DNA from: Verrucomicrobiota bacterium
GTDB taxonomy: Bacteria > Verrucomicrobiota > Verrucomicrobiia > Limisphaerales > J093
Direction: 5' to 3'
NCBI GenBank assembly: GCA_027493615.1
Contig: JAOSKK010000001.1
Location: 175,629-239,628, forward strand
Length of the DNA: 64,000 bases
Shown here: piece by piece, positions 1-26,192 of the stretch
How positions within the stretch are numbered: position 1 is the stretch's first letter
Layout of the letters: each line of letters starts with the position of its first letter
The notes under the pieces: generated by a model
What the model was told of the DNA's origin: nothing
Database searches by the model: none
The model's input: the letters and a program-made list of their open reading frames with translations, nothing else
Position numbers and translations under genes: made by a program

Positions 1-2170
1 GCCGATGTGTCGCCAGGCAAAACTCGTTGGCCGCCTCGAATTCCAAAGCCTTGCGCCACCATCTCTGCTCGTCAGAAGTGAGCTTGCGCCGAACAAGACC
101 CATGTCCTGGAACTTCTCCAGCAGCTTGTGGGTAATGTCGTTCAGGGCGAGACCGGCAGCGCCCGCAGCCTGCACCACTTGCTCGATGGCGTGGCGCACG
201 GCAAATTGCCGATGCCGGTCGCCCATGTAACCGGCCTGATGCGCCGCCTCCTGCCGGTTGTCGGCGAAGATCAACAGTTTCCGCTCCTTGGCGGGCAACT
301 TGTCCAGGTGGTGCGTCGCCAGCACCGAGTTGGACGACGCCGCGCCGGAGCGCAACAGCGTGAGGATGTCCCCTTTCGGATAGGTCGAATTGCAGACCGG
401 GCAAGTGTTGCCTCGACCGCGCATGACCTGCTGGACTGTCACCGTCGCTGCTGCCTTCCCGTCCGGCATCTCGTCATAGACCCTGCCCGTCTGATGGCAG
501 ACGAATTTCGGCATCAACTTCAGCCGGGACTTCGTGTGCGCCTGGCGCTTGCGCGGCTTCTTGTTCTCACCGTTCTCCTCGTCCTCCCCATCGTCGTCGT
601 CACCGGCCTGCTCAACGTGAACACACGGAGTGATAAAGCCCGTGTTCTCGTCGCTGATGAAATCGTCGTTGGGATAGGTCTTGGTTGGGTCGGCCTCGTC
701 GAATCGCACTTTGACGAAATCCTGGCCGCAGGTGCGGCACAGGGCGGCGGGCCGGACGGCACTGCCGCACTTCGGGCACGTCTCCGAACCGTCGCGCACG
801 AGCATCCGGCACGCGGGGTTCATGCAAAGGCCCACGTCATACACTCCCTGGAAGAACGTGTGCAGTTTCGGGCGCAAGCTGGGCGGGTCTTTCTCCGTCC
901 CCACTGACCCCACCAGCAGATATGCCTCGATCAGCGTTCGCAGCTCCAGATCGGTCAACGCCTTCGCCGTCTCAATCCCAGCCTTGACCGCTTGCACCAA
1001 CTCCGCCATCGAACGCGGCTCTCGACACTCGCGTTCCAGCAGGGCGACGAGTTGATTGCCTTCAAGCGCAGCACGAATCTTCTGCGGCATCGAGCCGGAC
1101 GAACCGAGCGATTGACCAGTTATCCTGGCGACCAGGTCCGACAGCTTGGCGTCGTCCTCGTGGTCAAAGGTCTGGATTTCCTCCGGCGCGAGCTTCACGA
1201 ACGGCGGCTGATACGTCCGGCTGGGCGGCGGCTTCACAACCAGCGTCTCGCCAATCACGTCTTCCCGCGAAAATGGTTCGCCATATAACGCGGACACGAA
1301 CTCCGCCAGGGCCTCGTCTCCACCGGCGTCTTTCGAGACCGTGGCCGACGTGCCAACGCACCGCAGCTTGCCCTCGCCCACACCCGCTCGCGCCTTGAGC
1401 CTGCGAATCAGGCAGGCAATTTCCGTTGCCAGTGCGCCACGATAACTGTGGATTTCGTCCAGAACCAAGAACCGCAGGCTCGGGCTGAACAGCGTGCGGT
1501 CCTCCTTCCGCACCAGCATGAACTCCAATTCCTTGTAGTTTGTGAGCAGGATGTCGGGCTGGTGCTGCCGGATGTCCGTGCGGCGGATGAACTCGTTGCC
1601 TTCCACCGGCTCGCCCAACGTCGCGGCCACGCTCTCGCTCTCCCCGGTGTACATCGCGAAGGTCACTCCCACGCCCGAATCCCGGATCAAGGTCCGAAGC
1701 CGTCCCAGTTGGTCATTCGCCAAGGCGTTCATCGGATACAACAGAATGGCCTTCGTCCCCTTCACGCCTTCCGCACGCATCCGCAACACGCCCGACATGA
1801 CGGCCAGCAGGAAGGCTTCGGTCTTGCCGCTGCCCGTCCCGGTTTTCACGATGACGTTGCGACCGAGTTGCTCCACGCGGCGGAGCGATTGCTCCTGATG
1901 CAGGAAAAGCCGCTGGTCGCCAAAGCTCCATTTGAGCCGCTGGAGGTCTTTGTGCCCGACGCCCTGTTCGTGAAGCTGTTTCAGCGTGTGCTCCCGGGCG
2001 AAATCGTTGGCCAGCGTCACGTACGGGCCTTTGACCAGCACGTCGGCCTGCTTGATGTGCGACTCGAACTGCTCGCGCAGGCGCGGATCGGCCAGCCGAT
2101 AGGTGCTCAGCAGGAAGCGCCGGTACTCGGCGACCAGATGGTTGACACTGCCGACGACGGAGAAGCTCAT
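1..2170 (-). CDS. SF2 DEAD/DEAH-box helicase with internal zinc ribbon, first ~723 codons only (the gene continues past the window start). DrmA-like member of the DISARM-type locus.
   Basis: It is absent from the ORF track because it has no stop in the window. Manual reverse translation from ATG (2170..2168) stays open to the window edge: MSFSVVGSVNHLVAEYRRFLLSTYRLADPRLREQFESHIKQADVLVKGPYVTLAN... Helicase motifs: I 'VKTGTGSGKTEAFLL', II 'LVLDEIHSYRG', III 'GTSAT', Cys-rich ribbon 'CMNPACRMLVRDGSETCPKCGSAVRPAALCRTCG', RecA2 'KLLIFADNRQEAAHQAGYM'. Its start overlaps the PIN gene stop (ATGA). Plus-strand ORFs 5..907 and 1448..2230 are antisense shadows of this gene. Confidence 0.8.
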   Translation of the reverse strand, partial: MSFSVVGSVNHLVAEYRRFLLSTYRLADPRLREQFESHIKQADVLVKGPYVTLANDFAREHTLKQLHEQGVGHKDLQRLKWSFGDQRLFLHQEQSLRRVEQLGRNVIVKTGTGSGKTEAFLLAVMSGVLRMRAEGVKGTKAILLYPMNALANDQLGRLRTLIRDSGVGVTFAMYTGESESVAATLGEPVEGNEFIRRTDIRQHQPDILLTNYKELEFMLVRKEDRTLFSPSLRFLVLDEIHSYRGALATEIACLIRRLKARAGVGEGKLRCVGTSATVSKDAGGDEALAEFVSALYGEPFSREDVIGETLVVKPPPSRTYQPPFVKLAPEEIQTFDHEDDAKLSDLVARITGQSLGSSGSMPQKIRAALEGNQLVALLERECREPRSMAELVQAVKAGIETAKALTDLELRTLIEAYLLVGSVGTEKDPPSLRPKLHTFFQGVYDVGLCMNPACRMLVRDGSETCPKCGSAVRPAALCRTCGQDFVKVRFDEADPTKTYPNDDFISDENTGFITPCVHVEQAGDDDDGEDEENGENKKPRKRQAHTKSRLKLMPKFVCHQTGRVYDEMPDGKAAATVTVQQVMRGRGNTCPVCNSTYPKGDILTLLRSGAASSNSVLATHHLDKLPAKERKLLIFADNRQEAAHQAGYMGDRHRQFAVRHAIEQVVQAAGAAGLALNDITHKLLEKFQDMGLVRRKLTSDEQRWWRKALEFEAANEFCLATHR

Positions 2171-2667
2171 TGTGTCCCTCCCATCAGGATGTCCGTCCGC
2201 AAGGCGCTCAGCCACTTCTCGGTGAAATGATTCTTGAACTGCGGCGAGATACCCACCGCCCGCGCCAGGGCCTCCAGGGAGACAAACCGCTCCAGGAATC
2301 CCAGTTCATTCCCGGCCCGCACCGCAGCCCGGTCGGATGCGCTCAAATACCATACGCCCGGCCTGGCGATGGCGTGGGCCAGCAGATGCTTTTCGCCCAT
2401 GTCAATACGGTCAGGCTCGGCGAGCCGGGTTTCGATTTCGGCCAGCTCCAGAAGGCTGACAGCGTGGACTGCGACCCCCTTCTTCATTTCCTCGACATCC
2501 ACCGCCACGTAATCGGCGCGGCGTCTATCGCCGGTCGCCGCCTCCTCGCTGCACTTCTCCACGGTTTCCACCTTGAAAAAGTTTTCCATCGCCCGCCAGC
2601 ACCGGACGCGATGCGCCTCGATGATGACGTTGGTGTCAACCAGAACGATGTCCCCTCTGGTAATCAT
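2167..2667 (-). CDS. PIN-domain protein (predicted nuclease)
   Basis: Intact 166-aa ORF. The N-terminal 'GDIVLVDTNVIIEAH' is the PIN strand-1 Asp plus a following Glu, and 'YLSASDRAAV' supplies a later acidic residue. It lies 12 nt downstream of the ImmA-like gene and overlaps the helicase start by 4 nt. Confidence 0.7.
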   Translation of the reverse strand: MITRGDIVLVDTNVIIEAHRVRCWRAMENFFKVETVEKCSEEAATGDRRRADYVAVDVEEMKKGVAVHAVSLLELAEIETRLAEPDRIDMGEKHLLAHAIARPGVWYLSASDRAAVRAGNELGFLERFVSLEALARAVGISPQFKNHFTEKWLSALRTDILMGGTQ

Positions 2668-2679
2668 GCGGTTTCCTCA

Positions 2680-3811
2680 TCACAAGTCGAACGGCACGCT
2701 GAACCCGTAGCTCTTGAACAGGTCTTCGAGGTCTTCCACGGTCATGTCCAGCAGTCCGGCAGCACGGCGCACCGAAAGCTCGCCGCGCTCCAACGCCCAA
2801 TGCAACCGTTCAACAAAACGACGAGAAAACAGCTTGGGGAGCGTCTGCTCCGAAGGGGAACGCCCGTTCCAGGTCAGGCGCTCTTTAACCATGTCGAGTG
2901 AAGCGGCCTGCGTCAGCCAGCCGAGCTGGCGCAGCCGCCAGTAAAGGGCCTCCGAGGTCACTTCAAAGTCGGAAGCCGTTGCGTTCAGCCAATCGTGGAG
3001 GTCTTGGTCGCCCCGCTTCTCCCAGCGTGGCTTCAAGCTCGCAGCGGGCATGAGCAGGGCTGCCGCGAAGTTGTTGGCCAACTGCTCGACGCGCTTGACC
3101 TTCGTCCCCTCGAACTTGTCCGCCGCGTCATAGGGCCGGGGCGGCATGGCGTTCCAGGTCAGGACGTGGAACGTCTCGTGGGCGAAGTCGTAGTTCCGCC
3201 GACCGTCCGGCTCGCGGCGGTTCACCAGGATCGTGTTGAACTGCGGAAGCTGGCAGGCCGCGCCCGAGATACCCACCGGCGCGTCCACGTACAACACGAG
3301 AATCTTCAGCCGATCCTCGACGACCTCTCGGAGCTTCTGCGCGGGGATGTCGCCCAACTGCCAGTCCGCCACGAGGGCTTCCCCCTGCCGCCTGCGCCTC
3401 CTCGAACGAGCTGCGCTCGGTGAGGTTCAACTGCTGCAACAGCGGGTTGTACGGCTCACCCTTGATTTCCCCGAGACGACGGTACGTGGCAATCCACCTG
3501 CCCGCCTTGGCCTCGAACTCGTCGAGCGACGCGGGCGCAGCCCCTACCGCCCGCCACGAGAACGCGCCTTCGCCGACCAGCGAGAAGGTGTCAGTGAAAT
3601 ACTCCAGCTTTTTCCCGAGCACCTGGATCAGCTTCACCAACTCCTCGGCGGTGAGCTTGCGCTTGCCCGCTTCAATGTTGGAAAGCGTTTGGCGGTCGTT
3701 GAAACCCAACTGGGAGGCCAGTTCGTCCTGACTCAGGCTGGCGTCTTCCCGAGCGAGTTTCACCCTCTGCCCGACGATCCGCTGAAACTGTTCCTGTGAG
3801 GTCTTGTTCAT
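2680..3811 (-). CDS. XRE-family HTH fused to an ImmA/IrrE (COG2856) zinc metallopeptidase, with the frame broken once
   Basis: ORF 3128..3811 begins with the HTH 'LSQDELASQLGFNDRQTLSNIEAGKRKLTAEELVKLIQVL'. ORF 2680..3372 carries the HExxH motif 'DFAHETFHVLTW' typical of ImmA/IrrE peptidases. The two frames meet at the C5 run 3381..3385 (...FEEAQAAG / EALVADWQLGDIP...). Restoring one base gives a single ~377-aa HTH-peptidase; as written they would be two adjacent genes. Confidence 0.8.
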
Positions 3812-3998
3812 TCGTTCGCCAAGAATCTACTCCGCCTATCGAGGAATGCAAGAATTATTTGCGGTTTAGGTTTTGCAATAATAGATCACATCGCGTTTCC
3901 TCATATAGTTGGTTTCCAAGTAGTTAGAAGCGAGACGCCCACTACCAAACCATTTGGACGCCGCGAATTGCTCCTTGCCAAGGCGTTCGGAAATGGGC
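3812..3998 (-). promoter_or_regulatory. AT-rich 187-bp spacer inside the defence locus: candidate promoter plus palindromic operator for the HTH-ImmA/PIN/helicase unit
   Basis: This is the only strongly AT-rich stretch in the first 11 kb. It lies directly upstream of the HTH gene start (3811). It contains the inverted repeat ATTATTTGC-N12-GCAATAAT at 3854..3882, and TTGCAT/TAGATT-like hexamers on the minus strand. No experimental support. Confidence 0.35.
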
Positions 3999-6900
3999 CT
4001 ACCAAGCCTGGCTGTCCAGCTTGGCGGTCAGGAACGCGAAGAACTCCGCGTGCTTCTTTGCGAAGACTGGGAACGAAGCCAAGACGTGCCGGAAGTCGTC
4101 CTGGGAAAGGCCGTACGCTTTGGCCACGGCCTTGTTCGCGATCCACAGACCTTCCCAATGCTCCTTGAGTTCGGTGATCCGCTCCACGCCGTGTTCCCAA
4201 GCGCAAACGACGGGAACACGCGGCAGGGCGTTGGTCACCGACGCAGGCGGCACGGGCATCGGGCGCATGTAGGTGAAGCTGATGTGCGTCCCGGCAGTAC
4301 GGAGGCGGAGAGCATAGTCGAAGCAGAAAGAGTTCAGTACTGTCTGGGCTGCCAGTGGATCGACTCCTCGAACGAGGACACCACACAATGTGTGGGAGGC
4401 AGCAGACCCGCGAGGAAGCATCACAGCAATGCAAGTCCTCTGGTTCGTGTTGCTCGCGGTTTCGCGGTACACGAGGACTTCCTCGTCGAGCGGTGGTCGC
4501 TCATGCTTTGCTACGGCGAGCGATTTCTTTAACCACCACCGGAACGGCTTGATCCCATAAATGAACTGCTCGATGTGCTTCCCCTCATAAACCGGGACAA
4601 AACCCTCCGCCGCCATAGCCGCTACAAGGTGGGTAGTATCGGTCGGCGGGTTCGTCAGTACATTCTTCGGGCTGAATAGGCTTCCGGTTGCTGGGTCTGT
4701 CCAGAGGTCTTTGTCTCGCGTCGCGTTGTAGGTGAACTTGTGCGCGAAGTCCGTGAACAGTTCAGCCCGCCAGCCCGCTGCGTCGTCGCTACCGAGCACG
4801 ACGGAGTGGCGATACATCTTGTGGACGATCTCCTGATCGCGAGGCCCGCGATACTCCAGCAGGGCGTAGCTTTCGGGCGAGAGTTTCGCAACCTCCTCCG
4901 CCGTGATGGTGACCATCTGGACGGACTCATCGCCCATCAACTCGCGCACGTCATGGCGCATGAAGATGGCGGGAAACCGCCTTTTGCTTGGCGTCTTTTT
5001 TCGACAGACGAAGCAGACGAACTTGTAGCTGGCGTGAATCGGGAAAATTTTCTGTCGGTTCTCAAATCCAAAAACCGATGCGATGCTGGCCTCCGTGACC
5101 AACCATTTTCTCAGCGTGGCGCAGCCGTCTCCGTTGTAGAACACTGAAGGCAACAACAGGCCGACGCTGCCGCCGTGCCGCACTACCTGAATCGAACGGT
5201 CGGCAAAATACTTGGAAAGGTCTTCGTGCGCGGCTTGGGTTCTCCCTTCGGAGAGTGGGAAATCGCCGCCGCCACGCAGCATCTGCATGGTGGTCTTGAC
5301 CCGATTCTCGTAAGCCTTGAACTCGCCCGCCAGCGCCGGATTCTTCTGGTGAAGCTCGCCGATGCGTTGATCGAGTTCGTTGCCGGACAAGGCGCGGATG
5401 AAGATGTCGTAACGACCATAGAACTCCTGCCGGTCGGGCAGCACCTTGTCCCACGGCGGATTTCCCACGATGACGTGAAATCCCTTGTGTTCACCGAAGA
5501 AGACTTCGGGGAACTCCAGTTGCCAGTGAAAGAACCGCTCGCGTTGGCGAGCTTCCTCGAATCTGTCCCACCACTTTTGCTTCTTGGCGTACCCTTCGAC
5601 ATCGTCGGTCGAGAGCAACGTGGCCCACGCGCCCCAGATTTCGGGCACAAACGCCGCCGCGCTCCGCAGATCGAACAGCAGCCGCGCCTGAGCCAGAAGT
5701 TCGTTTGAACGCTTCAGCCGGTCGGCTTTGTATTCGTACTCCTGGGGCGTGTCTTTGCGGATGTCGGGCGGCAACGGCTTATCAATGAGCAGGCGTTCGT
5801 CCAGCGCCTCGCGGATCAGCCGCTTGAACTGAATCTCGAACAAGCCGCCCTGATCCCGGCCCTTCTTGTCGTCGAGCGACGGATGGGGCGGTTGATGCAG
5901 CCGATCCAGCCATGTACCGAGGAGCGAGTTTCCAGGCCGGATGTGGTGTGCGAAAAAGCTCAGCGGACGATCCCCGGCCAGCGACTCGATCCAGAGCGCG
6001 ACCTGGGCGAGCTGCACGGCGGTCGGGTTCAAGTCCACGCCGAACAGGCATCGCTCGACAATCCGGCGCTTGCACCAGGCTTCGCCTTCGCTCTGCCAGC
6101 GTTGGCGGACTTCCGGCGTCAGCGGACGGTCGGGGGTAGAACTCGGGCGGCGGGTCGTCTTTGAACTCGCGGTGATAGGCGTCGAGAAGCTTGCGGCCCA
6201 TGTACCGGGCCGCGCCGACCAGGAAATGCGCCGAGCCGCAGGCCAGGTCAATGACCCGCAGCGACTCGATCTCCGCCGCTGATTTGTCCTCGACCAACCC
6301 CTCCAACGCCTTCCGCACGAGGTACTGGACGATTTCCTCTCGCGTGTAGAACGAGCCGCTGGACTTGCGGGCCGAGCCGGGAACGAAATAGAACTCGTCC
6401 TTCTCCAGTCGCCGGATCAGCCGGGCTGCCGCGCCCTTCTTGACACCTTTGTCTTCCTCCTCCTCGCCCTCGCTGCTTTCACCGTTCTCGTCTTCACCTT
6501 CATCCTCGTCCTCGGTGTCGGCGGCGTCTTCGTCCACCTCGACGTTATCGGGGTGGAGATTGGCGGCTTCGGTGTCCGCCACGAGGGCGGCATCGCCCTT
6601 GAGCGTGAGTTGCTTCTGCTCGCACAGCCGTTTCAATTCCGCAGGTGTAAGCACGAAACCGCGGCCCTGGACGACGACCTCGATCATCGTCTGGTCGGCG
6701 GTGCGCGGCTCGTATTCGAGCAGGCCCTCATAAACCGAGCCGAGCTGCTCGATCTCCAGTTCACGGTAGGACACCCGCTCGCGGCCCACGCCGCGCCGGG
6801 GCTTGGTCGTGGCCAGGGTCATCACCAGCTTTCCGGCGACGCGGTCGGACAGCTTCAGTTTGGCGATGAGCTGGCCTTCGGGCGTTTTGTCACTGAACAA

Positions 6901-7955
6901 CCGACCGCCCCGAGGCGGGATGTTCTCCAGATCGGGCGTCGGCGGCAGACCCTCGTCGTAGATGCGGAACAGGGCCTGGAGCGCCTGCCAAGTGCCGAAA
7001 CGATTGCCGGGGAGTTCCTCCTCGGGCACGCGCAAGAGCCGATCCACCAGTTGCTCCAGCGAGTAGGATTTTTGGTAGAGCCGATGCCGCTGCAACCGTT
7101 CGTCTCGGGCCTCGGCGTAGAGGATGAACAAGAGTCGGTAGAGTGTTTGCAGGGCGGTGTCGCGCAGTTGGCCGAGCGTGGGCTTGGGATTGAACGCTTC
7201 GGGCCTGCCTGCCGAAGCCCCGGCGCAGGCAGGGCGGGCCTGGATGTCTTCGAGGAATCCACGGATCAGGATTTCAGCGGCGCTGAAGACGGCAGCCTTC
7301 AAATCCTCCGACACCCGCGCACTGTGTTTCCGCGACTCGGCTTCCAGCAACTCGATGGGCCTGGGCGAGCCATCTGCCGCCACGAAGTTCTCCGCGTGCA
7401 GCACGCGATAGGCGGCGGTGAGGGAGTCAATGTCCTCGGTTTCGACGGCGCTGGCGATGGAGAAGTCGAAAGACGCCCCTTCGGGCCATCGCCCAAGCGC
7501 CGGATCAAGCGCAGCAGGCTCGGGGTGATGATGAAGCCGTAACTCAGGCCCTGGTCGGCCAGGAGACGCTCCAGCGTCCCTCGGGTCTGCCTGCTTTCGA
7601 TCTCGTCGTCGTCCGGGCAGAGGTAGAGCGCGGCAATCGGAGCAGTGGCCGCGCCCTGTGCAGCTTCCTCCGGTTGCCGCGTCAGCAGTCGAACACGGGT
7701 TTCTTCGGGATGCTCCTCGATGTTGAACCCGAGCACCTGGCCGAGCAGTGGCCGGGCGAACTGTTCACGGAAGCGCGTGAGGTCGGGATGCTCGAAGCCC
7801 TCGATCCGATTCCTGAGCTGGGTCAGACGCCAGAGCGTTTTCTCGGCCTGTGCCTTCGTCAACTTCGAGCCAACCCCCTTCTTGGCGCTCAGGATCGAGC
7901 CGAGCCAGTAGTCGGAGAAGAAGCCCCGGATGTTGCGGATCGAGTTAAGCGCCAT
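3999..7955 (-). CDS. Large (~1,320 aa) N6-adenine DNA methyltransferase of the Eco57I/type IIG-like family; DrmMI-like. Frame broken twice.
   Basis: Overlapping minus ORFs 7299..7979, 5782..7404 and 3999..6251 read as one protein if 1-nt indels at C4 7476..7479 (...LGDGPKG / ASFDFSIASAVE...) and G5 6132..6136 (...DDPPPEFY / DRPLTPEVRQRW...) are repaired. SAM motif I is 'VIDLACGSAHFLVGAARY' and catalytic motif IV is 'VIVGNPPWDK'. The start ATG at 7955 (MALNSIRNIRGFFSDYWLGS) overlaps the SNF2 gene end by 11 nt. I did not recognise any nuclease motif. Confidence 0.85.
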
Positions 7956-10900
7956 GCTTGCCCTCCGGTGGGAAAACAAAGAGGACGCCCAGCGGCTGCG
8001 GTGTCCCCGGTTTCACGCCTTGCTCGAATTTCGCGATCTCCTCCAGGCGGCGCTGGTGGAAGGTGTCCACCGACGCCCGCTTGGCTTTGAAGCCATAAAC
8101 CTCGCGCCGATCAAACAGCAACTGCCCCTGTTCCTCGACGGCCAGCGCCTGCTTTTCCTCCAGGTCAATCTCCGCCAGGCGGTCGGCGCGGTATCGCGCC
8201 GCGTCCTCACGAAGCACGGCGGCGAAGTCTTGCCGGGTGCGCGTTTCCTCTGCCGCCTTTTCCTCCAGCAATTTCATCGCGGCCTCGCCTGCCGCCGCCT
8301 GCAACTGCTTGAATCGCTCGCCAAACACCTTTTCGACTTCTGCCCAGGGCACTTCTCCTGGCGGGAAGGTGGTGTCGAGGGCGGCAATAACCTGATCCTG
8401 CGGGAGCGTTTTGCCAGAGGCATCAATGGCAACCGCAAGGAATTGCCCGTGGTCGTGATCGTCCTGCCGCAGGTAGGTGAACACGGCATACGGGCCTTCG
8501 TCCGCGAACGGGTGACGGCGCACTGCCAGACGGGCCGAGGAGGCGTTGGGATCGCGGGGCGAGGTCAACTGGCGGTGAGCATCCTGCGCCATCGCCTGAA
8601 AGAGCGGATGCAGCCGTGTGACGAACTCGACATCCCGCGCCGGGTATTGGATGGCGACGGTTCGACGGAACGTCAGGCATGGGTACGACTCCGCAACCTG
8701 CGGGCCTTGAAACTCCCGTGGTGTCCGCAGCGAAAACGTGCCGGGAATCTGGCCGGGTTTCAGGTGCGTGCGAAGCCGGGCGAGCATGAACCGCTCGAAC
8801 GACTCGTCATCCTGCATCACCTGGTCGGCAGACAGGCTATTGGGATCAATCTTCGCGCCGTAGCCGGGCCTGCCACTCATGAGCAATGGGGCAACTTCGC
8901 GCAGGAATGAATCGCGACCCTCGTCCAGCTTGCTGAAAATCCTGTCAGTTGCCGTCGTGGTGTCGCCTTCGGCGTCCAGTTCCGTCAACGCCTCCTCGAT
9001 GCGCTGGCCAGCCAGGATGCCAAGGATGTCCGGCGTGGAAACCTTGTCGGACTGCATCTGGACGATCCGTTTCACGAGGCGGTCGAGGACGTTGTCCTCC
9101 GGCGAATCGGGGTAGAACAGGTAGCGGATGATCGGATTCCGGGTCTGTCCGTGGCGATCCACGCGACCGTTGCGTTGTTCCATCCGGTTGGGATTCCAGC
9201 TCAGCTCGAAATGGTAAACACGGCGGCAGAATCGCTGGAGGTTCAACCCTTCGGACGCGGCGTCGGTCGCCAACAGCAGTTTTTTTCCTGGCTTCTCGAA
9301 ATCGGCCAATCGCCCCTGGCGTTTTTTCGAGGACAGCCCGCCTGTCAACTCAACGTAGCAGTCCTTGAACTCCGGGCGTGCGTCGAGGGCAGCCTTGATC
9401 GCGCCCAGCGTGTCCAGGTATTCGGTGAAGACGATCGCCTTTTCGTCGGGCTGCGAGAGGACATCGGCCTCCAGATCGGCGACGAGCGCCCCGATCTTGG
9501 GATCAGGCAGAGTCTTCACCTGGTCGATCAACTTCTTAATTTCCTGGAGTTGCTTCTTTTCGGCGCTGCGCCGCTTGGCGTCCTTCGACACCGTCGCCTT
9601 GACGATCCGGCTGGCGATGCGTTCGTGGGTCTTTTCGTTCAGCGGCAGGTCGCCCTGCAACTCGCGGACTTCGGATCGCGTGGGAGCTTCTTCCTGCTGC
9701 GTGCGGCTGGCCAGGGCCTCCAGGCGCTTTTCCACCGTGTTGGCCAGGGCCGTCCGGCTGGACAACATCCGCTTCTTGATGATCTGCATGGCGAACGACA
9801 CCAGCTCGGCGTCGTCGGTCTGCCGGGCGGCTGCGGTGGTCTTGGCGCAGTAGGAGGAGACCTTCTTGAAGATGGCCTTCTCCGCGTCCGCCAGCGCCGA
9901 CACGCTGATGGCCTTCACCGGTTCGCGAACCTTGAATGCGGGGATTCTGCTGCCGTCCGCCCCGGACTTGGAGATGTCGCCTTTCAGGCGGCGGATCATG
10001 CTGCGGCCCACGCGACGGGCGACCACGGTCTTGTCACCGGTGAAGCTGGCATCCGTGGGTTCGACGATTTCGAGTAGTGACCGGAAGCTGTGGCTGTAGC
10101 CGTTGTGCGGCGTCGCGGACAATAGAATCAACGACTTGGTGTGGTCGCGCAGCTTCGGGCCAAGTCGAGCGCGAGCGGTGAGGTAGGGCTGCGCGGCGTG
10201 CCGGATTCCGCCAGATAGTGTGCTTCGTCAACGACAATCACGTCCCAGCGCGGCTCAAGGGCGCTGGCCAGAACCTCCCTCTTTTTCAGGTACTCGATGG
10301 ATGTGATGACCCGGTTCAAGAAGACCCAGGGTTTGATCCCTCCGACAGACGGGTTTGTGCCCGTTCCAGGGCCGCTGCGTTTTCGATGGCCTCGAACTTG
10401 AGGCCGAATTTGGTCAGCATCTCCTCCTGCCACTGCGGGATCAGGCCGGGAGGGACGACCAGGAGGATGCGTTTCCCGCGCCCTCGGGCCAGCAGCTCCA
10501 GCAGGCAAATGCCCGCCTCAATGGTCTTGCCAAGGCCGACATCATCCGCGATCAGCAGGCTCGGGCGTGGGAGCTGGAGCATTCGGGCCACGGGCGCGAA
10601 CTGGTAATGCTCAGGCGAGATGCGCCCGCCGTAGAACGCGGCGAACTCGCCGGAGTCCACGCCGGACATCTTCAGGGCCAGGTTCGCCGACTGCCAGGTT
10701 TCAAACGGAGCAACCGCATGCCTGGCGAACACCGGCGACTCCTCCGGCAACGATTCGTAGATTTCGGGCGGGCACAGGGCTTCGAGCCGCTCGGCGCTGC
10801 TCGGGTCAAAAAGCCGGAAAAGGGTCTTGTTCTCGGCGACCTTCGTCGCCGTTTCCACCCGCCAAGCTTTGTCACGTAGAAGAATGCGTTGCATGGGCCG

Positions 10901-11359
10901 CCGTACGCCGCACTGGGCGGTAGTCGTATTCCAGACAAGCAGGGCTGACAATTCGGGATTTGGACCCCAAGGCCGATTCACCTGGATTTGGGGAAGGGGT
11001 TGCGCAGCCTGCAGAACCGGCTGCTCCCAGAACTCTGCGCTGAGAGCCAGCGTGCGGTGGGCTCGAAAGCCTTCTGCGACGCCCGAGGCCCTGCCCGGGT
11101 CGATGAGGCTCCCGGCTAACGTTGCGTCCTGGCCCAGGGCCAAGTGAGGCGGGCCGATTGCGATCGCCGGCCAGTGGTCGCGGATGACCTTGAGCACCCC
11201 CGCGTCGTCGTATTGATCGAGGGTCGGACTGCTTGCGCGGAGGCCGATGTCCTCCGGCGTGACCGCTACCCGGGCCAAGACGCCGGTGATCAGTCCGTCC
11301 GTGGCCTTCTTGCCACCGGCCCTGAGGGAGGGGAACCCTGCGCGCGCAGAGCCAGACAT
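7945..11359 (-). CDS. SNF2-family helicase (DrmD-like); frame broken at least twice
   Basis: Minus ORFs 10316..11359, 10128..10508 and 7945..10131 join near 10350 and at G3 10186..10188 (...ESGTPRSP / YLTARARLGPKLRDHTKSLILLSATPHNG...). Motifs: 'LLIADDVGLGKTIEAG', 'VIVVDEAHYL', 'LLSATPHNG', 'KAIVFTEY', 'LLATDAASEGLNLQ', 'HFELSWNPNRMEQRNGRVDRHGQ'. The start may instead be ATG 11444 (MVTEQVRQGQDGSPHPRRLVIDD...) if there is another indel near 11340. Confidence 0.85.
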
Positions 11360-11504
11360 CCGCCTCGCCGTCGTGATCGTCGATGACCAGCCGGCGGGGG
11401 TGGGGGGAACCGTCCTGTCCCTGCCGGACCTGCTCGGTGACCATGAACCGCGGCGGGTGCAGGCTGGAAGCCCGCACCGCAGGTTCAGGGAGCGCCTCCC
11501 TCAG

Positions 11505-11784: not shown

Positions 11785-14700
11785 TTGAAAGCGAAGAGAA
11801 TCCGCGAGCAGAAGGGCTTGCCTGACCCGGACAAACAAACGGCGCCGCAACTTGTGAACACCCAGTCATTCGTCCTTTCGTTGCCTGCCTGGCCGTGGCG
11901 CTGCCGTCCGGACTGCACGGCCCCCGTGATCGTCGTGCCCGAGGTGCGTGTTCCGCCGCCCCCGCGTTTCCCGGCGAACCTTCCGGTCACCCTCGAGGCA
12001 CCGGCCCGGCGGATCGGTGCACTGGCCAAGGTGGATCCTTCGCTGCTGACGAGCCAAGGCCCGGTGACCGTGGTCATCCGGTTCATGGATCCCCCGCTGA
12101 GTGTGGCGGCCGGGCCCAACGCCAAACGTGTGGGTCCCCGGCTGGATGCAGTCCAGCAAAGGGCCTACCACCGCCGGCTCATGGTGGGACAGGGTGCCGT
12201 GGTGAACACGGTGACGCGGAACGGGGGACGGGTTATCGCACGGTTGACGCGGTCGCTGAACGCAGTCATTGCCACCGTGGAGGCGACGGCGATCGTGCGG
12301 CTGGCCGAACTGGCGCCCGTCGTCACCATCCGGCCCGTGGGCAACTACGAACTGGACCTCTCGCAGACCGTCCCGCACGTGGGCGCCGCGGCGGTTCACG
12401 GGCTCGGTGTGGACGGCACCGGCGTGCGTGTGGCGGTGCTCGATTCCGGCGTTGATTACACACACCGCAACCTGGGCGGCGCCGGCACGGTCGAGGCCTA
12501 TCTGGCGGCCTACGGCGAGAGTGCCGAAGCCGACGCGAACAAGCGGCTCGACGGGCTCTTTCCCACACCGAAAGTGATCGGCGGCTACGACTTCGTGGGC
12601 GAGATCTGGCCGTTGGGCCCGGACGGTCTGGCTGGACCGCTGGCACCGGATCCGGATCCGATTGACCGGGAAGGTCACGGGACCCACGTGGCGGACATCA
12701 TCGCCGGGGAGAGCCTGGACGGGTTGCATCGGGGCGTGGCGCCCGGCGCGAGGCTGTATGCCTTCAAGGTGTGCAGCGCCGTTGCGACCTCCTGCAGCGG
12801 GGTGGCCATCCTTCAGGGGCTGGAGCGGGCGATGGACCCGGATGAGAATGGCGACCTCAGCGACGCCGTGGACGTGGTGAACCTCTCCCTGGGATCGTCT
12901 TACGGCCAGATCCAGGACGACAGCGCCGGCGCGGTGCAGAACCTGGTGGATTTTGGCATCGTGGTCGTTGCTTCCGCGGGCAACAGCGGCGACAAGCCGT
13001 ATGTGGTCGGGGCGCCCGCGATTGCGCCCGGCGTGATCAGCGTCGCCCAGACCCAGATGCCGTCGGCCTTCGCGATCGCCGTCCGCGCCACGCAGGACGG
13101 CGTCACGACCTTCTATCCAAACACCGTCATGGTGGATTGGGCCCCGGTCGTGGACGAGGTGACCGGGACGCTGGTGCTCGCGGGACGTGGGTGTCCCGGC
13201 GATGCCTATCCGGAGGGGGCAGATCTGGCCGGCAAGATCGCCCTGATCGACCGCGGCGTTTGTGCCGTAAGTCTGAAGGTGGACCAGGCGGCGAGGGCCG
13301 GGGCCGTCGGCGTGATCCTCGCCAACAACGTGCCGGGTGACCCACCGGGTTTCTCCTTCGGCGGCGGCGACACCCTGGTTCCGACCCTCGTCATCAGCCA
13401 GGCCGACGGCAACGCGTTGAAGGCTCTGCTGGCCTTGCCGAGCCCGGTGACCGTCACGTTTTCCCCGGACGTCGGCACGCCCTTGAGCGGGAGCCTGGTC
13501 GCGAGCTCCTCCCGTGGTCCGGCCCCGAGCAACCAGGCCATCAAACCGGACGTGGGCGCTCCGGGCGCATCGGTTTCGGCGGAGGTGGGCACCGGCGGCG
13601 GCGAAACCGCGTTCGGCGGCACCTCGGGCGCGGCGCCGATGGTGTCCGGGGCGGCGGCGCTGCTTCTGGAGGCCTTCCCGACGCTGGCCCCGCATGAGGT
13701 CAAGGCCCGGCTCATGAACACGGCCGAGCGGGACATCCTGGTGAATCCGGTCGCCCAGCCCGGCCTGTTGGCCCCCATCACGCGCATCGGCGCCGGCGAG
13801 GTTCGCGTGGACCGTGCCCACGCCACCGACACCATCGCCTACGACCGGGATTCGAGGATCGCGAGCCTCTCCTTCGGCTACCGCTCGATCAACGCGGCAT
13901 CCCCGGTCACGACGCTGCGCAAGACCGTCGAGATCGCCAATCTGGGTTCCGCCCCGCGGACGTACACCGCCGAGAACTTGTTCCGCTACGCGGAGGACGC
14001 GGCGACGGCGGCCGTGACGGTGACCTTCACCCCGCCCTCGATTGACGTGCCGGCGGGTGGGGTGGGCTACCTCCGGGTTTCCCTGACGGTGAACCCCGCG
14101 TTGCTGCCGGACTGGTTCCTTGCGGGAGGCGCCCGCGGCGGCGACGGCGAGGCGCTGCGCTTGAACGAGTTCGACGGCCATGTGCTGATCCGCGGCGGCG
14201 CGGAGACCATCGCGCTTCCCTGGCACCTCCTCCCGCGCAAGGCGGCCGACATGCGTCCCGATACGAGACACTTGTGGCTCGTCGGAGATCCCGGCGAGGA
14301 ATCGGGAGTCGTCACGGTGGGCAACACCTGGGGGAGTACGGCGGGGGTGACGGAGGTGTTTGATCTGCTCGGCACCAGTCCTCTCGACTACCCTTCCCCG
14401 CCACTGCCGGGCGCGGATTACGCGCTGGTCGACCTCAAGTCGTTTGGCGCGCGGACCTTCATCGCCGGGGACGTCCCTTATGTGGAGTTCGCCGTCGCCA
14501 CGCACGGCGAACCGGCGCATCCAAACTACCCGGCCGGGATCGAAATCGACATCGACGTTACCGGGGACGGCGACCCGGACTTCGCCGTGTACCATCGGGA
14601 ACTGACCGGGTTTGCGCAGACCGGACAGAACGTGACGGCGGTCTACAATGTCGCCACGAAGACCGAGCTGCCCGTGCGGTTTTTCACGGACTGCGATCTG

Positions 14701-15054
14701 GATGCCAGCGTCATGGTGTTCCGGGTGCGCCTTTCTGACCTGGGCATCGGCCTGGGCGACCCCATGCAGATCATTGTCTGGGGCTACGACAACTATTTCA
14801 CGGGTTGGACCACGGACTACATCGCTGACGGGGCTTACCTGATCCTGTACACGCCGGGGGTGCCGCGGTTCGATGCCGGACCGCAGAGCCTGTCCGCGGC
14901 TGCCGGGGCCCGCGCGGCGCTGGCGGTTCGGCGAGACCCCGTCTGGGGCCCGCTGGCAGATCTCTATTCGCCGTCTCACACGGGCCTCCTGCTGCTCCAC
15001 CGTCAGGCCGCCTCGCGTCGTTGGACGGACGAGATTGAGGTCACCGTGCCCTGA
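11785..15054 (+). CDS. Secreted subtilisin-like serine protease (peptidase S8) with a PA-domain insert and a long C-terminal extension
   Basis: Catalytic triad motifs 'VAVLDSGVDYTH', 'HGTHVADIIAG' and 'GTSGAAPMVSGAAALL'. PA-like insert 'GKIALIDRGVCAVSLKVDQAARAGAVGVILANN'. The N-terminus is uncertain: a signal-peptide-like segment (..IRPFVACLAVALPSGLHG) is encoded in another frame just before the C5 run 11921..11925, which suggests one more indel. The 1,075-aa minus ORF 11866..15093 is an antisense shadow. Confidence 0.9.
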   Translation: MKAKRIREQKGLPDPDKQTAPQLVNTQSFVLSLPAWPWRCRPDCTAPVIVVPEVRVPPPPRFPANLPVTLEAPARRIGALAKVDPSLLTSQGPVTVVIRFMDPPLSVAAGPNAKRVGPRLDAVQQRAYHRRLMVGQGAVVNTVTRNGGRVIARLTRSLNAVIATVEATAIVRLAELAPVVTIRPVGNYELDLSQTVPHVGAAAVHGLGVDGTGVRVAVLDSGVDYTHRNLGGAGTVEAYLAAYGESAEADANKRLDGLFPTPKVIGGYDFVGEIWPLGPDGLAGPLAPDPDPIDREGHGTHVADIIAGESLDGLHRGVAPGARLYAFKVCSAVATSCSGVAILQGLERAMDPDENGDLSDAVDVVNLSLGSSYGQIQDDSAGAVQNLVDFGIVVVASAGNSGDKPYVVGAPAIAPGVISVAQTQMPSAFAIAVRATQDGVTTFYPNTVMVDWAPVVDEVTGTLVLAGRGCPGDAYPEGADLAGKIALIDRGVCAVSLKVDQAARAGAVGVILANNVPGDPPGFSFGGGDTLVPTLVISQADGNALKALLALPSPVTVTFSPDVGTPLSGSLVASSSRGPAPSNQAIKPDVGAPGASVSAEVGTGGGETAFGGTSGAAPMVSGAAALLLEAFPTLAPHEVKARLMNTAERDILVNPVAQPGLLAPITRIGAGEVRVDRAHATDTIAYDRDSRIASLSFGYRSINAASPVTTLRKTVEIANLGSAPRTYTAENLFRYAEDAATAAVTVTFTPPSIDVPAGGVGYLRVSLTVNPALLPDWFLAGGARGGDGEALRLNEFDGHVLIRGGAETIALPWHLLPRKAADMRPDTRHLWLVGDPGEESGVVTVGNTWGSTAGVTEVFDLLGTSPLDYPSPPLPGADYALVDLKSFGARTFIAGDVPYVEFAVATHGEPAHPNYPAGIEIDIDVTGDGDPDFAVYHRELTGFAQTGQNVTAVYNVATKTELPVRFFTDCDLDASVMVFRVRLSDLGIGLGDPMQIIVWGYDNYFTGWTTDYIADGAYLILYTPGVPRFDAGPQSLSAAAGARAALAVRRDPVWGPLADLYSPSHTGLLLLHRQAASRRWTDEIEVTVP

Positions 15055-15153
15055 GCCGAGCCACCGCAAGGCCGAACCGTGGACAACTTCCATTCATGCT
15101 GCGCCGAGCCGCAAGCGGATTGCCCCTCACCCTGTTTGCACAGACGCCACCCC

Positions 15154-15794
15154 ATGAAAGCCATCCCCACCCGCATCGCCGCACCGTGCCGCCCGGTCAG
15201 CCGCTGGATCCTTGCTGCCGCAGTGCTGGGCGCCGCCCCGCGACTGCGGTCGCGCAGGTCTTGCTCGACTTCGAGGGGATCCCATCGAGCTACAACTACG
15301 ACGGTGGTGGGCTGAACCTCGGTGGCTACTATGCCGGCCAGCCTGGCGGACCGACCTTTGGCCCGCAGGCCACCGTCCTCGAGGTGGGCGGGAGTTTGAA
15401 CGACGCCCTTTACCCGCCGAAATCGGGGACGGCCACTCTTTGGGGTGAGGGGCAGGACATCGAACTCACCTTCACCACCGCCCCGGCGCAAAGCGTCCGC
15501 TTGTATTACCGCTCGAATGCGGAGGTGTTCCTGTTCGCGTACGACGGCTTGAACGCGCTGCTGGGGTCCACCAGCGGAGCGGCCAGTCTGGGCGGTGATC
15601 CGGAAGGGCTCCTCGATTTCACGGCGTCGGGCCTCGACGGCATCGCCCGTGTGCTGATCCTGGGGCCGGCCGGTGCGTTCATCGTTGATGACGTGGCCTA
15701 CCACCCCGTGCCGGTCGTGCCGGAACCGGCCCACGTCGCGCTGGTGTCCGGCCTGGGGCTCCTGGGATTTGCGGTGTGGCGACGCCGGGCTTGA
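15154..15794 (+). CDS. PEP-CTERM sorting-domain protein (exosortase substrate); frame broken once
   Basis: The C-terminus 'VPEPAHVALVSGLGLLGFAVWRRRA' is a PEP motif, a TM helix and a basic tail. The signal peptide 'MKAIPTRIAAPCRPVSRWILAAAVLGAAP' (ATG 15154, frame of ORF 15079..15315) joins the frame of 15096..15794 at the C4 run 15236..15239. Confidence 0.8.
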
Positions 15795-22920: not shown

Positions 22921-25900
22921 ATGCTTGAAACGATGCCTAGAGGACGAAAATCCGTCGCCCCGCGCCCGGCTCAGGTCAACAAATACGACGCCACCCATAC
23001 GGCGCTCAAGACCGCGTATGGCGAGTGGGCGGACCTTCGCCGGGAACTTGCCGATTCCCGCGCCGCCGTCGAGGAACGCACCCAGTTGCTGGACCTCTTC
23101 GCCGGCTGCCAGGACTCCCAGCGCGCCTGGCTCCTCCTCGAGGACTACTTCGGCAAGCTCTCCCTCGCGCGCCGCGACTTCGCCGGTAACGAGTGGTGGG
23201 CCCGCCTTCTCGCCGTCCAGGGCCGCGCCCGCCTCGAGGAAACCGCCCTCCTCTTCCTGCGCAACAACCGGCCCCTGCCCAAGGAGCTCTCCGGCTACGC
23301 CAACTTCGAACGCCTCGCCGAACTCGAACGCGCCGAGAAGGAACAACAGCGCATCGCGGAGCTCGAACGCTGGCTGCTCCCCCAACTCGATCACCTCGAC
23401 TCGCCCCGCGCCCGGTTGCGCGTCCTCGCCAAAGCCGTCCCCAGCGCCACCGCGCCCGGCCGCCATGAACTCGAGCTCGACTTCCTCCTGTTCCGCCCCC
23501 GCTCCGGCGAGAAGGGCCGGACGTTGGCCGAACTGATCGAGTTGACCACCCGGGCCATGCATGAGCAGGAGCTCTTCGCCCCGCGCGACTGGGAGTTCCT
23601 TCGCTGGCTGGCCACCTTCTACACCAACGTCACCCTTCCGGAAGGCCCCTTGCGCCTCGCCGGCCTCGACCTGCTCCAGTGGCTCGCGCACTGGGGCAAC
23701 CCGCCCTGGATCGAATGGTCCGGCCGCGCCGAGAACGTCTTCTTCACCGGCCAGATGGCCGAGTTCGTCCCCCACCTCGAGAACGGTGACCACGAACTTG
23801 CCTTCACCCAACGCCTCCGCCTCCCGGGCAGCCAGGAACTCGACCTCACCCAGGCCCGCTTCTTCGCCGGCCAACCTCCGCTCATCGCCGTCGAACAGAC
23901 CTTCTACCTTCTCCGCAACGCCCCCGCCCCGGAATTGCTCGACTCTTTGCTGGCCCAACCCCGGGTCCCGGTCCGCAAACTCAGTCACCGCCTCCTCACC
24001 CACCTCCGCAAGACCCGCACGGGCAATGGCTCGGATTGGGGCAGCCTCTGCCGCGCCCACCACGCCCGCCCCCAGTTCACCTTCGAACTGGAAGACGAAA
24101 CCGTCCGCCTCCGCCTCCGCGCCGTCAGTGACCTCGACCAGAGTCGTTGGCAGTGGAACGGTCACGAATGGCAGCCCAGCGAGCCGCCCGCTACGACACC
24201 GGACAAACCCGAGGTCCTCGACGACCCCCGCCTCGACGCCGCCACCCAGTGGCTCCGCCGCCTCGACTGGTTCACCCCCGAGGCTGGCCTGTGGGTCGGC
24301 GATGCCAACGACGCCTTCCTCAGCTCCCTTGCCACCGCCTGGCCCGACCGACCCGCGCAGGCCGATTACCTCGCCAACGCCGCCTTTCAGCGCCTCTTCC
24401 TCCAGCCCCGCCAGCTCAAACCCAAGATCATTGTCCAGGGTAGTGGCATCGACTGGTTCGCCGTCTCCGCCGCCTGGGAACAGGAAGGCCTCAAGCTCAC
24501 CAAGGCCGACCTCGAACGGCTCGCCGCCGCCACCTCGCGCTTCGTCAAACTGCCCGACAGCGGTTGGGTCCAGCTCGACCTCGGCGCCGTGCAGCAGGCC
24601 CACGAAACCATGGCCGACCTCGGCCTCGACACCCTCTCCGCTCTGCCCCAAAAGGTCGACATGGTGCAGGCCGTGCACCTCGGCGAGGAAGGCCTCCAGC
24701 GCTTCGCCGATCTCCCCGAAACCCGCGCCCTCCGCGAACGCCTCGGCAACTTCCGCGGCGTTGCCTCCGTCCCCCTGCCCGCTGGCCTCAAGGCCGAGAT
24801 GCGTCCCTACCAGAAGGCCGGCTTCGACTTCCTCTGCCACCTCGCCCAGGTCAAGCTCGGGGGCATCCTGGCCGACGACATGGGCCTGGGCAAAACCCTC
24901 CAGACCCTGTGCTGGCTTGCCTGGCTCAAGGAACAGCATCCCAAGCGACCCAAACCCGTCCTGGTCATCTGCCCGGCGTCCGTCCTCCATAACTGGCGTC
25001 GCGAGGCCGAGAAGTTCACCCCCCATCTCAAAGTCCTGGTCTTCGAGAGCGGCCCCGCCCGGCACAACCTCCGCAAACTCATCCCCCAACACGACATCGT
25101 CGTCACCAACTACGCCCTGCTCCGACGCGACCTCGAGGGCCCTCAAGCGTTTCACGTTCCGCGCCGTCATTCTGGACGAGGCCCAGTTCATCAAGAACCC
25201 CGCCGCCCAGGTCAGCCAGTCCGTCAAACAACTTGAAGCCGACCACCGCCTGGCCCTCACCGGCACCCCGCTCGAAAACCGCCTGCTCGACCTCTGGAGC
25301 ATCGTTGACTTCGTCCAGCCCGCCTACCTCGGCACCCAGCAGCAGTTCCACGAGACCTACGAACCCACCGGCGAGGACGCCGAATGGAACCAGCGCATGG
25401 CGCGCCGCAAACTCTCCGCCAAGCTGCGCCCCCGTCCTCCTCCGCCGCCTCAAGAAGCAGGTCGCCCAGGACCTCCCGGACCGCATCGAGGAACGCCGCG
25501 ATTGCGAGCTCGAGGAGGCCCAGCGCAAACTCTACCTTGCCGAGCTGCGGCGCAGCCGCGAACAGGTCCTCCAAACCGTCCAGGAAAAGGGCCTCGCCCG
25601 CAGCAAACTCCAGGTCCTCGCAGCCCTCACCCGCCTCCGCCAGATCTGCTGCCACCCCACGCTCGTTGGCAGCGACTGCCCGTCGGGCAAGACCGACACC
25701 CTCTTCGAGCTCATCGAGCCGCTGCTCGACGAAGGACAGAAGGTGCTCGTCTTCAGCCAGTTCGTCCGGATGCTGCTGCTCCTTCAGGAGGAATGCCGCA
25801 AACGTTCCATGCCCACCCATCTGCTCACGGGCGATACCAAGAACCGGCAGGAGGTCGTCCAGGCCTTCCAGGAGGATCCCAACCCCTCGATCTTCCTCCT

Positions 25901-26192
25901 CAGCCTCCGCGCCGCCGGCACCGGCCTCAACCTCACCACCGCCAGCTACGTCGTCCTCTACGATCCCTGGTGGAACCCCGCCGTCGAAGCCCAGGCCATC
26001 GACCGCACCCACCGCATCGGCCAGACCCGCACCGTCAACGCCTATCGCCTCATCACCCCCGGCACCGTCGAGGAAAAGATCTGGGAACTCCAGCAGCGCA
26101 AGGCGCAGACCATCGCCGACGTCCTCGGGGAGGAAGGCTTCGCCCGCAGCCTCACCCGCGCCGACCTCGAATACCTGTTTGCCGAAGACTGA
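22921..26192 (+). CDS. SNF2-family helicase with a ~600-aa N-terminal domain of unknown function; frame broken twice
   Basis: ORFs 22921..25236, 23561..26290 (middle part only) and 25233..26192 join at G3 25137..25139 (...LLRRDLE / ALKRFTFRAVILDEAQFIKN...) and C5 25429..25433 (...SAKLRP / VLLRRLKKQVA...). Motifs: 'GGILADDMGLGKTLQTL', 'VILDEAQFIKN', 'LALTGTPLENRL', 'KVLVFSQFVRML', 'LLSLRAAGTGLNLTTASYVVLYDPWWNPAVEAQAIDRTHRIGQ'. The minus ORF 22792..25302 is an antisense shadow. Confidence 0.85.

Follow-up and report, generated by a model that had tools for sequence, protein, structure and literature searches.

A probable ARMADA type I anti-phage locus with a nested HTH-M78/PIN cassette in a Verrucomicrobiota bacterium

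We analysed a stretch of 64,000 nt (hereafter the window) from contig JAOSKK010000001.1 of a Verrucomicrobiota bacterium (positions 175,629-239,628), the first ~10.9 kb of which carry a cluster of minus-strand genes. This locus is very probably an ARMADA type I anti-phage system with the gene order armA-armB-armC, in which a cassette encoding a helix-turn-helix (HTH)-M78 regulator and a PIN-fold protein is nested between armB and armC, and in which the interrupted reading frames are most likely assembly errors. It is a further example of the kind of system described in 2025, neither DISARM nor a new system, and the cassette is its sole unusual feature. The original prediction, made from the DNA letters, had read the cluster as a DISARM class 1-like locus. 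That reading holds insofar as the cluster serves defence and has DISARM class 1 among its relatives, with a DrmD-like SNF2 helicase and a DrmMI/PglX-like methyltransferase, and it is partly supported because ARMADA was itself introduced as a relative of DISARM (Bell et al. 2025, bioRxiv; PMC12458937); however, the third large gene encodes a DruE-like helicase, and the overall composition is that of ARMADA type I.

As defined in the same study, ARMADA combines a BrxHII/RapA-like ArmA, a PglX-like ArmB and a YprA-like ArmC with a C-terminal Vsr nuclease. ArmC is closest to the Druantia protein DruE, with which it forms one clade, and type II systems add ArmD (PMC12458937).

Classification of the locus

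The three defining components of ARMADA type I are present in the window: ArmA as a BrxHII/RapA-like SNF2 helicase, ArmB as a PglX-like N6-adenine methyltransferase with an NPPW motif, and ArmC as a YprA-like helicase that belongs to the Druantia/ARMADA branch and contains a Zn-binding insertion. The window ends before the region in which relatives with 89% identical helicases carry a DUF1998 and a Vsr-type nuclease fused to ArmC (MZB, DUF559/MTES_1575 and the motif YCDGxxxHG).

Relatives were sampled in two ways, by a scan with one genome per species, which yielded 80 loci, and by a search with orfX, the gene of the PIN-fold protein, which recovered much closer relatives, including loci L082 and L083. 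The syntenic helicase of L001, 58% identical to that of the window, is MBI5899705.1, which the available part of Table S1 of PMC12458937 gives as 'ARMADA Type I helicase' and in which the Calothrix contig of L040 is also listed; six further contig accessions are not among the Table S1 entries listed, which says little. Together with this entry, a rough neighbour-joining tree places the helicase of the window in the type I clade: its nearest neighbours are L082 and L083, followed by L001, L002 and L004, and this group lies inside a clade to which L040 belongs but E. coli type II ArmC and DruE (both from EDL933) do not.

Gene order supports the same assignment. The same five genes, each in a single frame, recur in unchanged order in L001 (Rhodocyclales), L002 (Binatia) and L004 (Gammaproteobacteria), where the helicases are 55-58% identical to that of the window. 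The order is also shared by L082, while L003, L014 and L083 have the part from the cassette to the helicase in common with the window, and many other loci, including one in a Thermococcus metagenome-assembled genome, show the SNF2-methyltransferase-helicase series without the cassette. No homologue of E. coli ArmD was detected by tblastn in L001-L005, L009, L011, L016, L082 or L083.

Locus layout

From position 1 to 11.5 kb the minus strand is made up of long stop-free segments in alternating frames. Families were assigned to the window's proteins with Pfam, PADLOC and NCBIfam profile models. Three segments belong to the SNF2 helicase by Pfam and PADLOC (10319-11500, 10131-10517 and 7948-10227), three to the Eco57I/N6-adenine methyltransferase (7302-8012, 5785-7764 and 4002-6416), one to an Xre-type HTH protein (3131-3826) and one to an M78 peptidase (2683-3426); a further segment of 169 codons (2170-2676) has no family match and contains the 166-aa orfX. 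The five co-oriented minus-strand genes of the original prediction are confirmed:

1-2170, minus strand: armC, YprA/DruE-like DEAD/DEAH helicase-nuclease, N-terminal 723 codons from ATG 2170, leaving the window at position 1
2167-2667, minus strand: orfX, 166-aa PIN-fold protein, putative nuclease toxin of the nested cassette
2680-3811, minus strand: HTH-M78 gene, fusion of an Xre-type HTH and an M78 (ImmA/IrrE) metallopeptidase, RmrA-like, 376 aa when repaired
3812-3998, minus strand: intergenic gap of 187 nt between armB and the HTH-M78 gene, AT-rich, presumed internal promoter/operator region
3999-7955, minus strand: armB, PglX/Eco57I-like gamma-class N6-adenine DNA methyltransferase, 1,318 aa when repaired
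7945-10894, minus strand: armA, SNF2/RapA/BrxHII-like helicase (DrmD-like), 983 aa when repaired
10895-11463, minus strand: coding-like stretch preceding the armA ATG in the same frame, locus membership doubtful

The genes are tightly packed, and both overlaps described earlier are as stated. The SNF2 stop codon (TAA 7947-7945) and the methyltransferase start (ATG 7955, preceded by GGAGG) overlap by 11 nt, and orfX (ATG 2667, TGA 2169-2167) shares an ATGA at 2170-2167 with the helicase start at ATG 2170. The methyltransferase ends at TAG 4001-3999, the HTH gene starts at ATG 3811 and the M78 part ends at TGA 2682-2680.

The ArmC helicase and the DISARM and Druantia alternatives

Pfam identifies a DEAD domain (4e-22) and a double zinc ribbon in the window part of armC, in agreement with the predicted DEAD/DEAH helicase with an internal Cys4 ribbon: GSGKT, DEIH and CMNPAC...CPKC...CRTC are all seen, and the CxxC clusters lie at residues 452-481 and 590. 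PADLOC scores this part as DruE (7.6e-72) far ahead of DrmA (1.1e-8), as it does the full-length helicase of a relative (4e-152 versus 3e-12), and the L002 homologue, on which the NCBIfam models were scored, reaches 20.5 bits against the DrmA cut-off of 950 bits.

Only the first ~40% of armC lies in the window. Over the shared 723 residues it is 89% identical at the protein level to the helicases of L082 and L083, which are 1,733 and 1,729 aa long and consist of DEAD, YjiV_N, Helicase_C, MZB (DUF1998) and DUF559/MTES_1575 domains; the L002 helicase has the same architecture. A conserved C-terminal PDFAY...IAIYCDGxxxHG...GW motif of the Vsr type was found in the 14 loci compared. Judging from these relatives, we infer that about 1,000 further armC codons would follow beyond position 1, encoding the Helicase_C, DUF1998 and Vsr-type nuclease regions.

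According to the DISARM class 1 reading, the window holds drmD, drmMI and drmA, with drmB (DUF1998) and drmC (PLD) just past position 1. The SNF2 and methyltransferase genes lend it some support, since their best or near-best PADLOC families are DrmD (1.7e-76) and DrmMI (1.3e-53) and DrmD is the top NCBIfam match of the L002 SNF2 homologue. However, that match (476 bits) falls below the equivalog cut-off of 610 bits, so that the two genes are homologous to their DISARM counterparts rather than equivalogs, and the helicase is not of the DrmA type by either PADLOC or NCBIfam. In every relative the helicase is a polypeptide of ~1,730 aa with DUF1998 fused to it, and no separate DrmB gene follows it in L002, L082, L083 or L087, where the MZB/DUF1998 module lies inside the helicase. 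No PLD gene directly follows the helicase in L082, L083 or L087, and no open reading frame (ORF) of at least 250 aa follows it in L004. More generally, close relatives have no separate DUF1998, PLD or ArmD-like UvrD gene directly after the helicase, and the genes that do follow are mutually unrelated (DUF2130 in L082 and L087, PIN_12 in L083). The sole PLD match nearby belongs to a separate, unrelated PLD-SNF2 fusion 1.6 kb downstream in L002. As judged from the relatives, the expectation that drmB and drmC would lie beyond position 1 is not supported; the original prediction had itself named their absence beforehand as telling against DISARM. From the DrmA and NCBIfam scores together with the relatives we conclude that the DISARM core of DrmA, DrmB and DrmC is absent and that only DrmD-like and DrmMI-like genes are shared, which makes DISARM class 1 a very improbable label.

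The helicase scores raise a second alternative, in which a Druantia DruE would have its partners outside the window and the SNF2/methyltransferase pair would be a separate neighbouring system. DruE is indeed the best PADLOC family of the helicase, and DruE and ArmC share one clade (PMC12458937). However, the genes upstream of the DruE-like helicase are the SNF2 gene, the methyltransferase gene and the cassette rather than Druantia partners, and no DruH homologue was detected by tblastn in 89 related loci (druA-D and druM/F/G were not searched with queries of their own). In addition, the SNF2, methyltransferase and helicase genes are syntenic across many bacterial lineages and one archaeon, and the C-terminal nuclease of the relatives is of the Vsr type, whereas Druantia III has a PLD pair. 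We consider this arrangement extremely unlikely. BREX, suggested by the PglX-like and BrxHII-like proteins, was also considered and rejected, as neither the locus nor its relatives contain any other BREX-type gene.

ArmA and ArmB

The armA product has SNF2-rel_dom and Helicase_C domains (Pfam), matches BrxHII as well as DrmD in PADLOC and RapA in NCBIfam, and is 26% identical to E. coli ArmA over its full length. The armB product was described as a methyltransferase of ~1,320 aa with the motifs VIDLACGSAHF and GNPPW, which agrees with the repaired length of 1,318 aa and with motif positions at residues 568 and 831. Its Pfam matches are Eco57I (5e-20), N6_Mtase and MmeI_Mtase only, and it is 27-28% identical to E. 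coli ArmB over two aligned stretches.

A type IIG/ISP-like restriction-modification variant, in which a large methyltransferase would carry its own nuclease and the helicases would be accessory, is suggested by PADLOC restriction endonuclease-methyltransferase models that match the C-terminal half of ArmB (4.2e-53). The remaining evidence speaks against a nuclease in this protein. Across 10 homologues Pfam gives methyltransferase domains and one weak MmeI helical-spacer match; a profile search of the PDB matches only the methyltransferase regions of BsaXI, CamA (7rfk) and PglX/BrxX, while a direct PDB sequence search with repaired ArmB gave no match; and E. coli type II ArmB aligns from residue 163 onward. 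Residues 1-520 contain no lysine that is invariant among the homologues, and therefore a conserved PD-(D/E)xK site is unlikely. The earlier statement that the methyltransferase has no nuclease motif is thereby borne out by Pfam, the PDB profile search and the invariant residues, no fold prediction having been made for its N-terminus, and the restriction-modification variant has, in our estimate, hardly any chance of being correct.

ArmB residues ~1051-1200 (window ~4370-5550) are 38-56% identical to L082, whereas most of the rest is 84-100% identical. On this comparison, the hypervariable C-terminal segment looks like a swapped target-recognition region.

The nested HTH-M78/PIN cassette

Once repaired, the HTH-M78 protein matches HTH_3 (2e-12) and Peptidase_M78 (2e-13) in Pfam and the RosmerTA antitoxin RmrA in PADLOC (9.4e-23, residues 15-365), and it has an HExxH motif in the form HETFH. 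The gene is called as a single ORF in L081 (436 aa) and in L082 and L087 (376 aa each). A genuine split of HTH and M78 parts at 3381-3385, of the CapH/CapP type, was considered and rejected in view of the G4 run at this site in relatives and the one 376-aa ORF in L082 and L087. In L083, L085 and L086 only the M78 ORF is called, with similarity to the window from 3400; these contigs nonetheless carry G4.

The protein encoded by orfX has no Pfam, NCBIfam or PADLOC match, with only two weak sub-threshold Pfam matches (RskA_N and PSD2). An AlphaFold2 model built from a 40-sequence alignment (mean pLDDT 93.9) was searched against the PDB with Foldseek. Its best match is the PIN domain of VapC4 (5h4g, E 2e-4, TM 0.60-0.68), and the top seven are all VapC-type PIN domains; residues D11, E42, E92 and D112 are invariant among the 40 homologues, and D89 nearly so. 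The call of orfX as a PIN protein is supported by these structural matches and conserved acidic residues.

The predicted extra regulator/PIN module behind an internal intergenic gap is likewise confirmed, with the 187-nt AT-rich gap at 3812-3998. Similarity to L087-L089 begins at 3880, about 70 nt upstream of the HTH-M78 ATG. The cassette occupies an unchanged position in relatives spanning at least six bacterial lineages, and close ARMADA relatives retain the ATGA in which the PIN stop and the armC start overlap. Homologues of orfX are paired with an HTH-M78 gene in all six contexts examined. In distant homologues (38-40% identical, L092-L096) the HTH-M78 gene always precedes and the setting is not ARMADA, one group lying beside a type ISP-like methylase without a helicase part and another beside uvrD among housekeeping genes. 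Since the HTH-M78/PIN pair also occurs in such non-ARMADA contexts, we regard it as a mobile cassette. Architectures combining HTH-DUF955 with PIN were described by Matelska et al. 2017 (PMC5499597), and RmrA-type antitoxins were reported by Ernits et al. 2023 (PMC10440598), who discuss the HTH-DUF955 and PIN type under Rosmer-like systems. The cassette is thus of a known mobile type and, in one subclade, sits inserted at the armB-armC junction; such a cassette is not mentioned in the text of PMC12458937.

The same junction holds other cargo in further type I loci, namely Hachiman (HamA and a DEAD helicase) in L016 (5628-9966), a Schlafen/AlbA_2-HATPase_c_4 gene in L011 (8153-9856) and a macro-domain gene in L005 (5995-7104), and is empty in L009.

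Frame breaks and integrity of the locus

Alignment to intact homologues places five frame breaks in the locus, two each in the SNF2 and methyltransferase genes and one in the HTH-M78 gene, and all are indels of ±1 in G/C runs of 3-5 bases. Single-base deletions lie at about 10337 and about 10184-10194 in armA and at 7476-7479 in armB, and single-base insertions in a C5 run at 6132-6136 in armB and in a G5 run at 3381-3385 in the HTH-M78 gene. At the latter site L081, L082, L083 and L086, which come from different samples, have G4, and L087 has GGAG. The original prediction had all three large genes broken at homopolymers, which applies to the SNF2 and methyltransferase genes, both broken in G/C runs, but not to the helicase: in the window this is one open frame of 768 codons (2305 to 2), colinear with the relatives, and its 723 codons from ATG 2170 are free of breaks.

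One-base repairs yield full-length proteins colinear with homologues (SNF2 983 aa, methyltransferase 1,318 aa, HTH-M78 376 aa), and armA, once repaired, aligns colinearly with its intact counterparts in L001, L002, L004 and L082. Comparable breaks occur elsewhere in the window. In a metH-like gene (37899-41086, plus strand) the S-methyl_trans domain and the Pterin_bind and B12-binding domains lie in different frames, with a switch near 39063; a break of this kind in a housekeeping gene suggests that indel errors of the assembly affect the window as a whole. Another, unrelated gene of the SNF2 family, whose N-terminal region is long (22953-26368, plus strand), switches near 25137 and 25426, with SNF2-rel_dom positions 1-119 and 213-289 in different frames, and a DUF2961 gene (31839-33867, plus strand) lies in two frames, with a switch near 32636. 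A codon-position GC model (GC3-phase hidden Markov model), which gives a rough count, suggests about 10-13 candidate breaks in the remaining 52 kb. Because similar breaks, such as those in metH, occur elsewhere in the window, the breaks in the locus look like assembly noise; homopolymer assembly errors rather than pseudogenisation are the most likely cause, and the earlier expectation that the genes are probably intact in the organism is upheld, the repairs restoring full ORFs.

Several observations nevertheless weigh against our interpretation. The break density in the locus (five in 10.9 kb) is about twice that roughly estimated for the remainder of the window, and related loci are visibly decaying: in L087-L089 armA and most of armB are lost while the cassette and armC are retained, and L081 keeps only the HTH-M78 gene, a truncated PIN gene and ~225 nt of armC, adjoining Mu-like transposase genes. 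The 187-nt gap contains neither a consensus sigma-70 site by promoter scan nor an inverted repeat by repeat search. The DUF1998 and nuclease regions, like the lack of armD, drmB and drmC, are judged from relatives with 84-90% nucleotide identity. Finally, PMC12458937 gives YprA-first as the usual type I order and reports armA-armB-armC for many archaea and cyanobacteria, and experimental proof of direct anti-phage defence concerns E. coli ARMADA type II only (PMC12458937, PMC13463889).

The first two of these points would fit a decayed relic, with real breaks that have turned armA, armB and the cassette repressor into pseudogenes of this organism, and because of them the real inactivation of at least one gene keeps a small probability. 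The character of the lesions argues otherwise: there is no in-frame stop, deletion or damage other than the ±1 changes in G/C runs that single-base repairs reverse, the codon-position GC signal is maintained throughout, and metH is broken likewise. Moreover, the 84%-identical L082, whose contigs carry Flye-style names, has an armB break of its own at a different site. A relic is therefore unlikely, though it deserves more weight than the DISARM, Druantia or restriction-modification readings. In L082 the break lies at ~8163-8168, in a contig named in the style of a long-read assembler.

Locus boundaries and neighbouring genes

The locus was predicted to fill positions 1-11444 and to run out of the window. 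The helicase does exit at position 1, but the extent of the locus is 1-10898. Nucleotide similarity to L082, the closest full relative (84% over 10,958 nt), begins at 10898, 4 bases upstream of ATG 10894, and protein similarity to all relatives begins at the methionine of this codon. The SNF2 identity of the ~1,140-aa helicase in the original prediction likewise stands, whereas its length does not, since the homology-supported start at ATG 10894 gives 983 aa, as in relatives. The longer form, from ATG 11359, would add 155 residues, for which tblastn found no homologue in any locus and Pfam no match, and they were excluded from the locus. GC climbs from about 0.62 to 0.67-0.70 at the upstream edge of armA. 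We therefore place the armA start at 10894 and the apparent edge of the acquired segment at about 10898. The stretch at 10895-11463, coding-like by the GC3-phase model and in frame with the SNF2 gene, matches no relative and no Pfam family; it may be a lineage-specific extension of the ArmA N-terminus or what is left of a host gene into which the locus inserted.

The locus is flanked by a divergent subtilase gene (11801-15575, plus strand; Peptidase_S8 and PA domains, about 1,090 aa) with a possible frame switch near 15247. The sole tRNA in the window, tRNA-Gly(CCC) at 59496-59569 (plus strand), is distant from the locus and without visible link to it.

Proposed mechanism and significance

The type II system of E. 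coli protects directly and without abortive infection; it requires all of its genes, the Walker motifs of both ArmA and ArmC, and the NPPW motif in ArmB (PMC12458937, PMC13463889). By analogy, we propose that ArmB of the present locus would mark host DNA with N6-methyladenine at a motif that its variable C-terminal recognition region specifies, and that ArmA and ArmC would load onto and translocate along invading or replicating phage DNA in an ATP-driven manner, where this DNA is unmarked or exposes single-stranded ends or forks. Such DNA could then be cleaved by the C-terminal Vsr-type domain of ArmC, in a direct and non-abortive response as in E. coli type II.

Transcription of armC is probably driven by the cassette promoter, because the cassette has its own upstream gap and the PIN stop overlaps the armC start, and this promoter is probably autoregulated by the HTH-M78 protein. 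As a candidate toxin or second effector, the PIN protein might be released once the protease domain removes the repressor. It is conceivable, although we hold it to be a minority possibility, that the cassette acts as a control unit, in which the repressor-protease silences armC until a phage or DNA-damage cue triggers self-cleavage, switching ArmC on and freeing the PIN protein as an abortive second layer. This would amount to a sensor-gated ARMADA, perhaps comparable to the control of CBASS by CapH/CapP, a parallel we offer with the same reserve. Such a role would fit the observations because the cassette position is kept in at least six lineages, the ATGA coupling is preserved, and L087-L089 retain only the cassette and armC.

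Classification as ARMADA type I corrects the label of a locus that 2023 tools and models split into 'DISARM-like' and 'Druantia-like' parts, although it is one system. It also adds a bacterial example of the armA-armB-armC order, which PMC12458937 mainly reports for archaea and cyanobacteria, and brings two features not described in the text of that paper, a conserved regulator/PIN cassette between the methylase and the effector helicase, and the use of the armB-armC junction as a cargo slot. As a compact, regulated variant with a variable ArmB recognition region, the locus would be a reasonable candidate for testing ARMADA type I.

Comparison with known systems

With DISARM class 1 the locus shares a DrmD-like SNF2 helicase, a DrmMI-like adenine methyltransferase and a YprA-superfamily helicase, which in relatives has a DUF1998 module. 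It differs, as judged from relatives, in that the helicase and DUF1998 form one polypeptide of the Druantia/ARMADA branch, and a fused Vsr-type nuclease takes the place of the DrmC PLD protein. Druantia type III DruE is similarly a large helicase-nuclease of the YprA family and shares the inserted Zn-ribbon region; however, the present locus has no DruH partner, a nuclease that in relatives is of the Vsr rather than the PLD type, and an attached SNF2/methyltransferase pair.

E. coli ARMADA type II (armABCD, z5899-z5902) has the same armA-armB-armC order, and ArmA is 26% identical over its full length, ArmB 27-28% over two aligned stretches and the ArmC N-terminus 34% over its best-aligned stretch. 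It differs in possessing a GajB/RelE-type ArmD, which is characteristic of type II and absent from the close relatives of the present locus, an ArmC of 2,113 aa with extra EEP and second Vsr domains (~1,730 aa in the relatives) and an ArmB of 1,644 aa (1,318 aa here).

The cassette resembles RosmerTA-type and HTH-DUF955 plus PIN three-component toxin-antitoxin cassettes in its Xre-HTH/M78 fusion with HExxH, next to which comes a PIN-fold gene conserving four acidic residues, and in that the pair also stands alone (L092-L096). Unlike these, it is nested in a defence operon with its stop overlapping the start of the effector helicase, and its PIN family matches no Pfam or PADLOC model, the toxin and antitoxin roles being putative.

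The closest correspondence is with ARMADA type I. The locus departs from this type in its armA-armB-armC order, the usual order being YprA-first, and in the HTH-M78 and PIN cassette between armB and armC; it agrees in the Zn-binding modules of ArmC and in the three defining genes. Its close relatives lack ArmD, and relatives with 89% identical helicases carry DUF1998 and a Vsr-type nuclease fused to ArmC.

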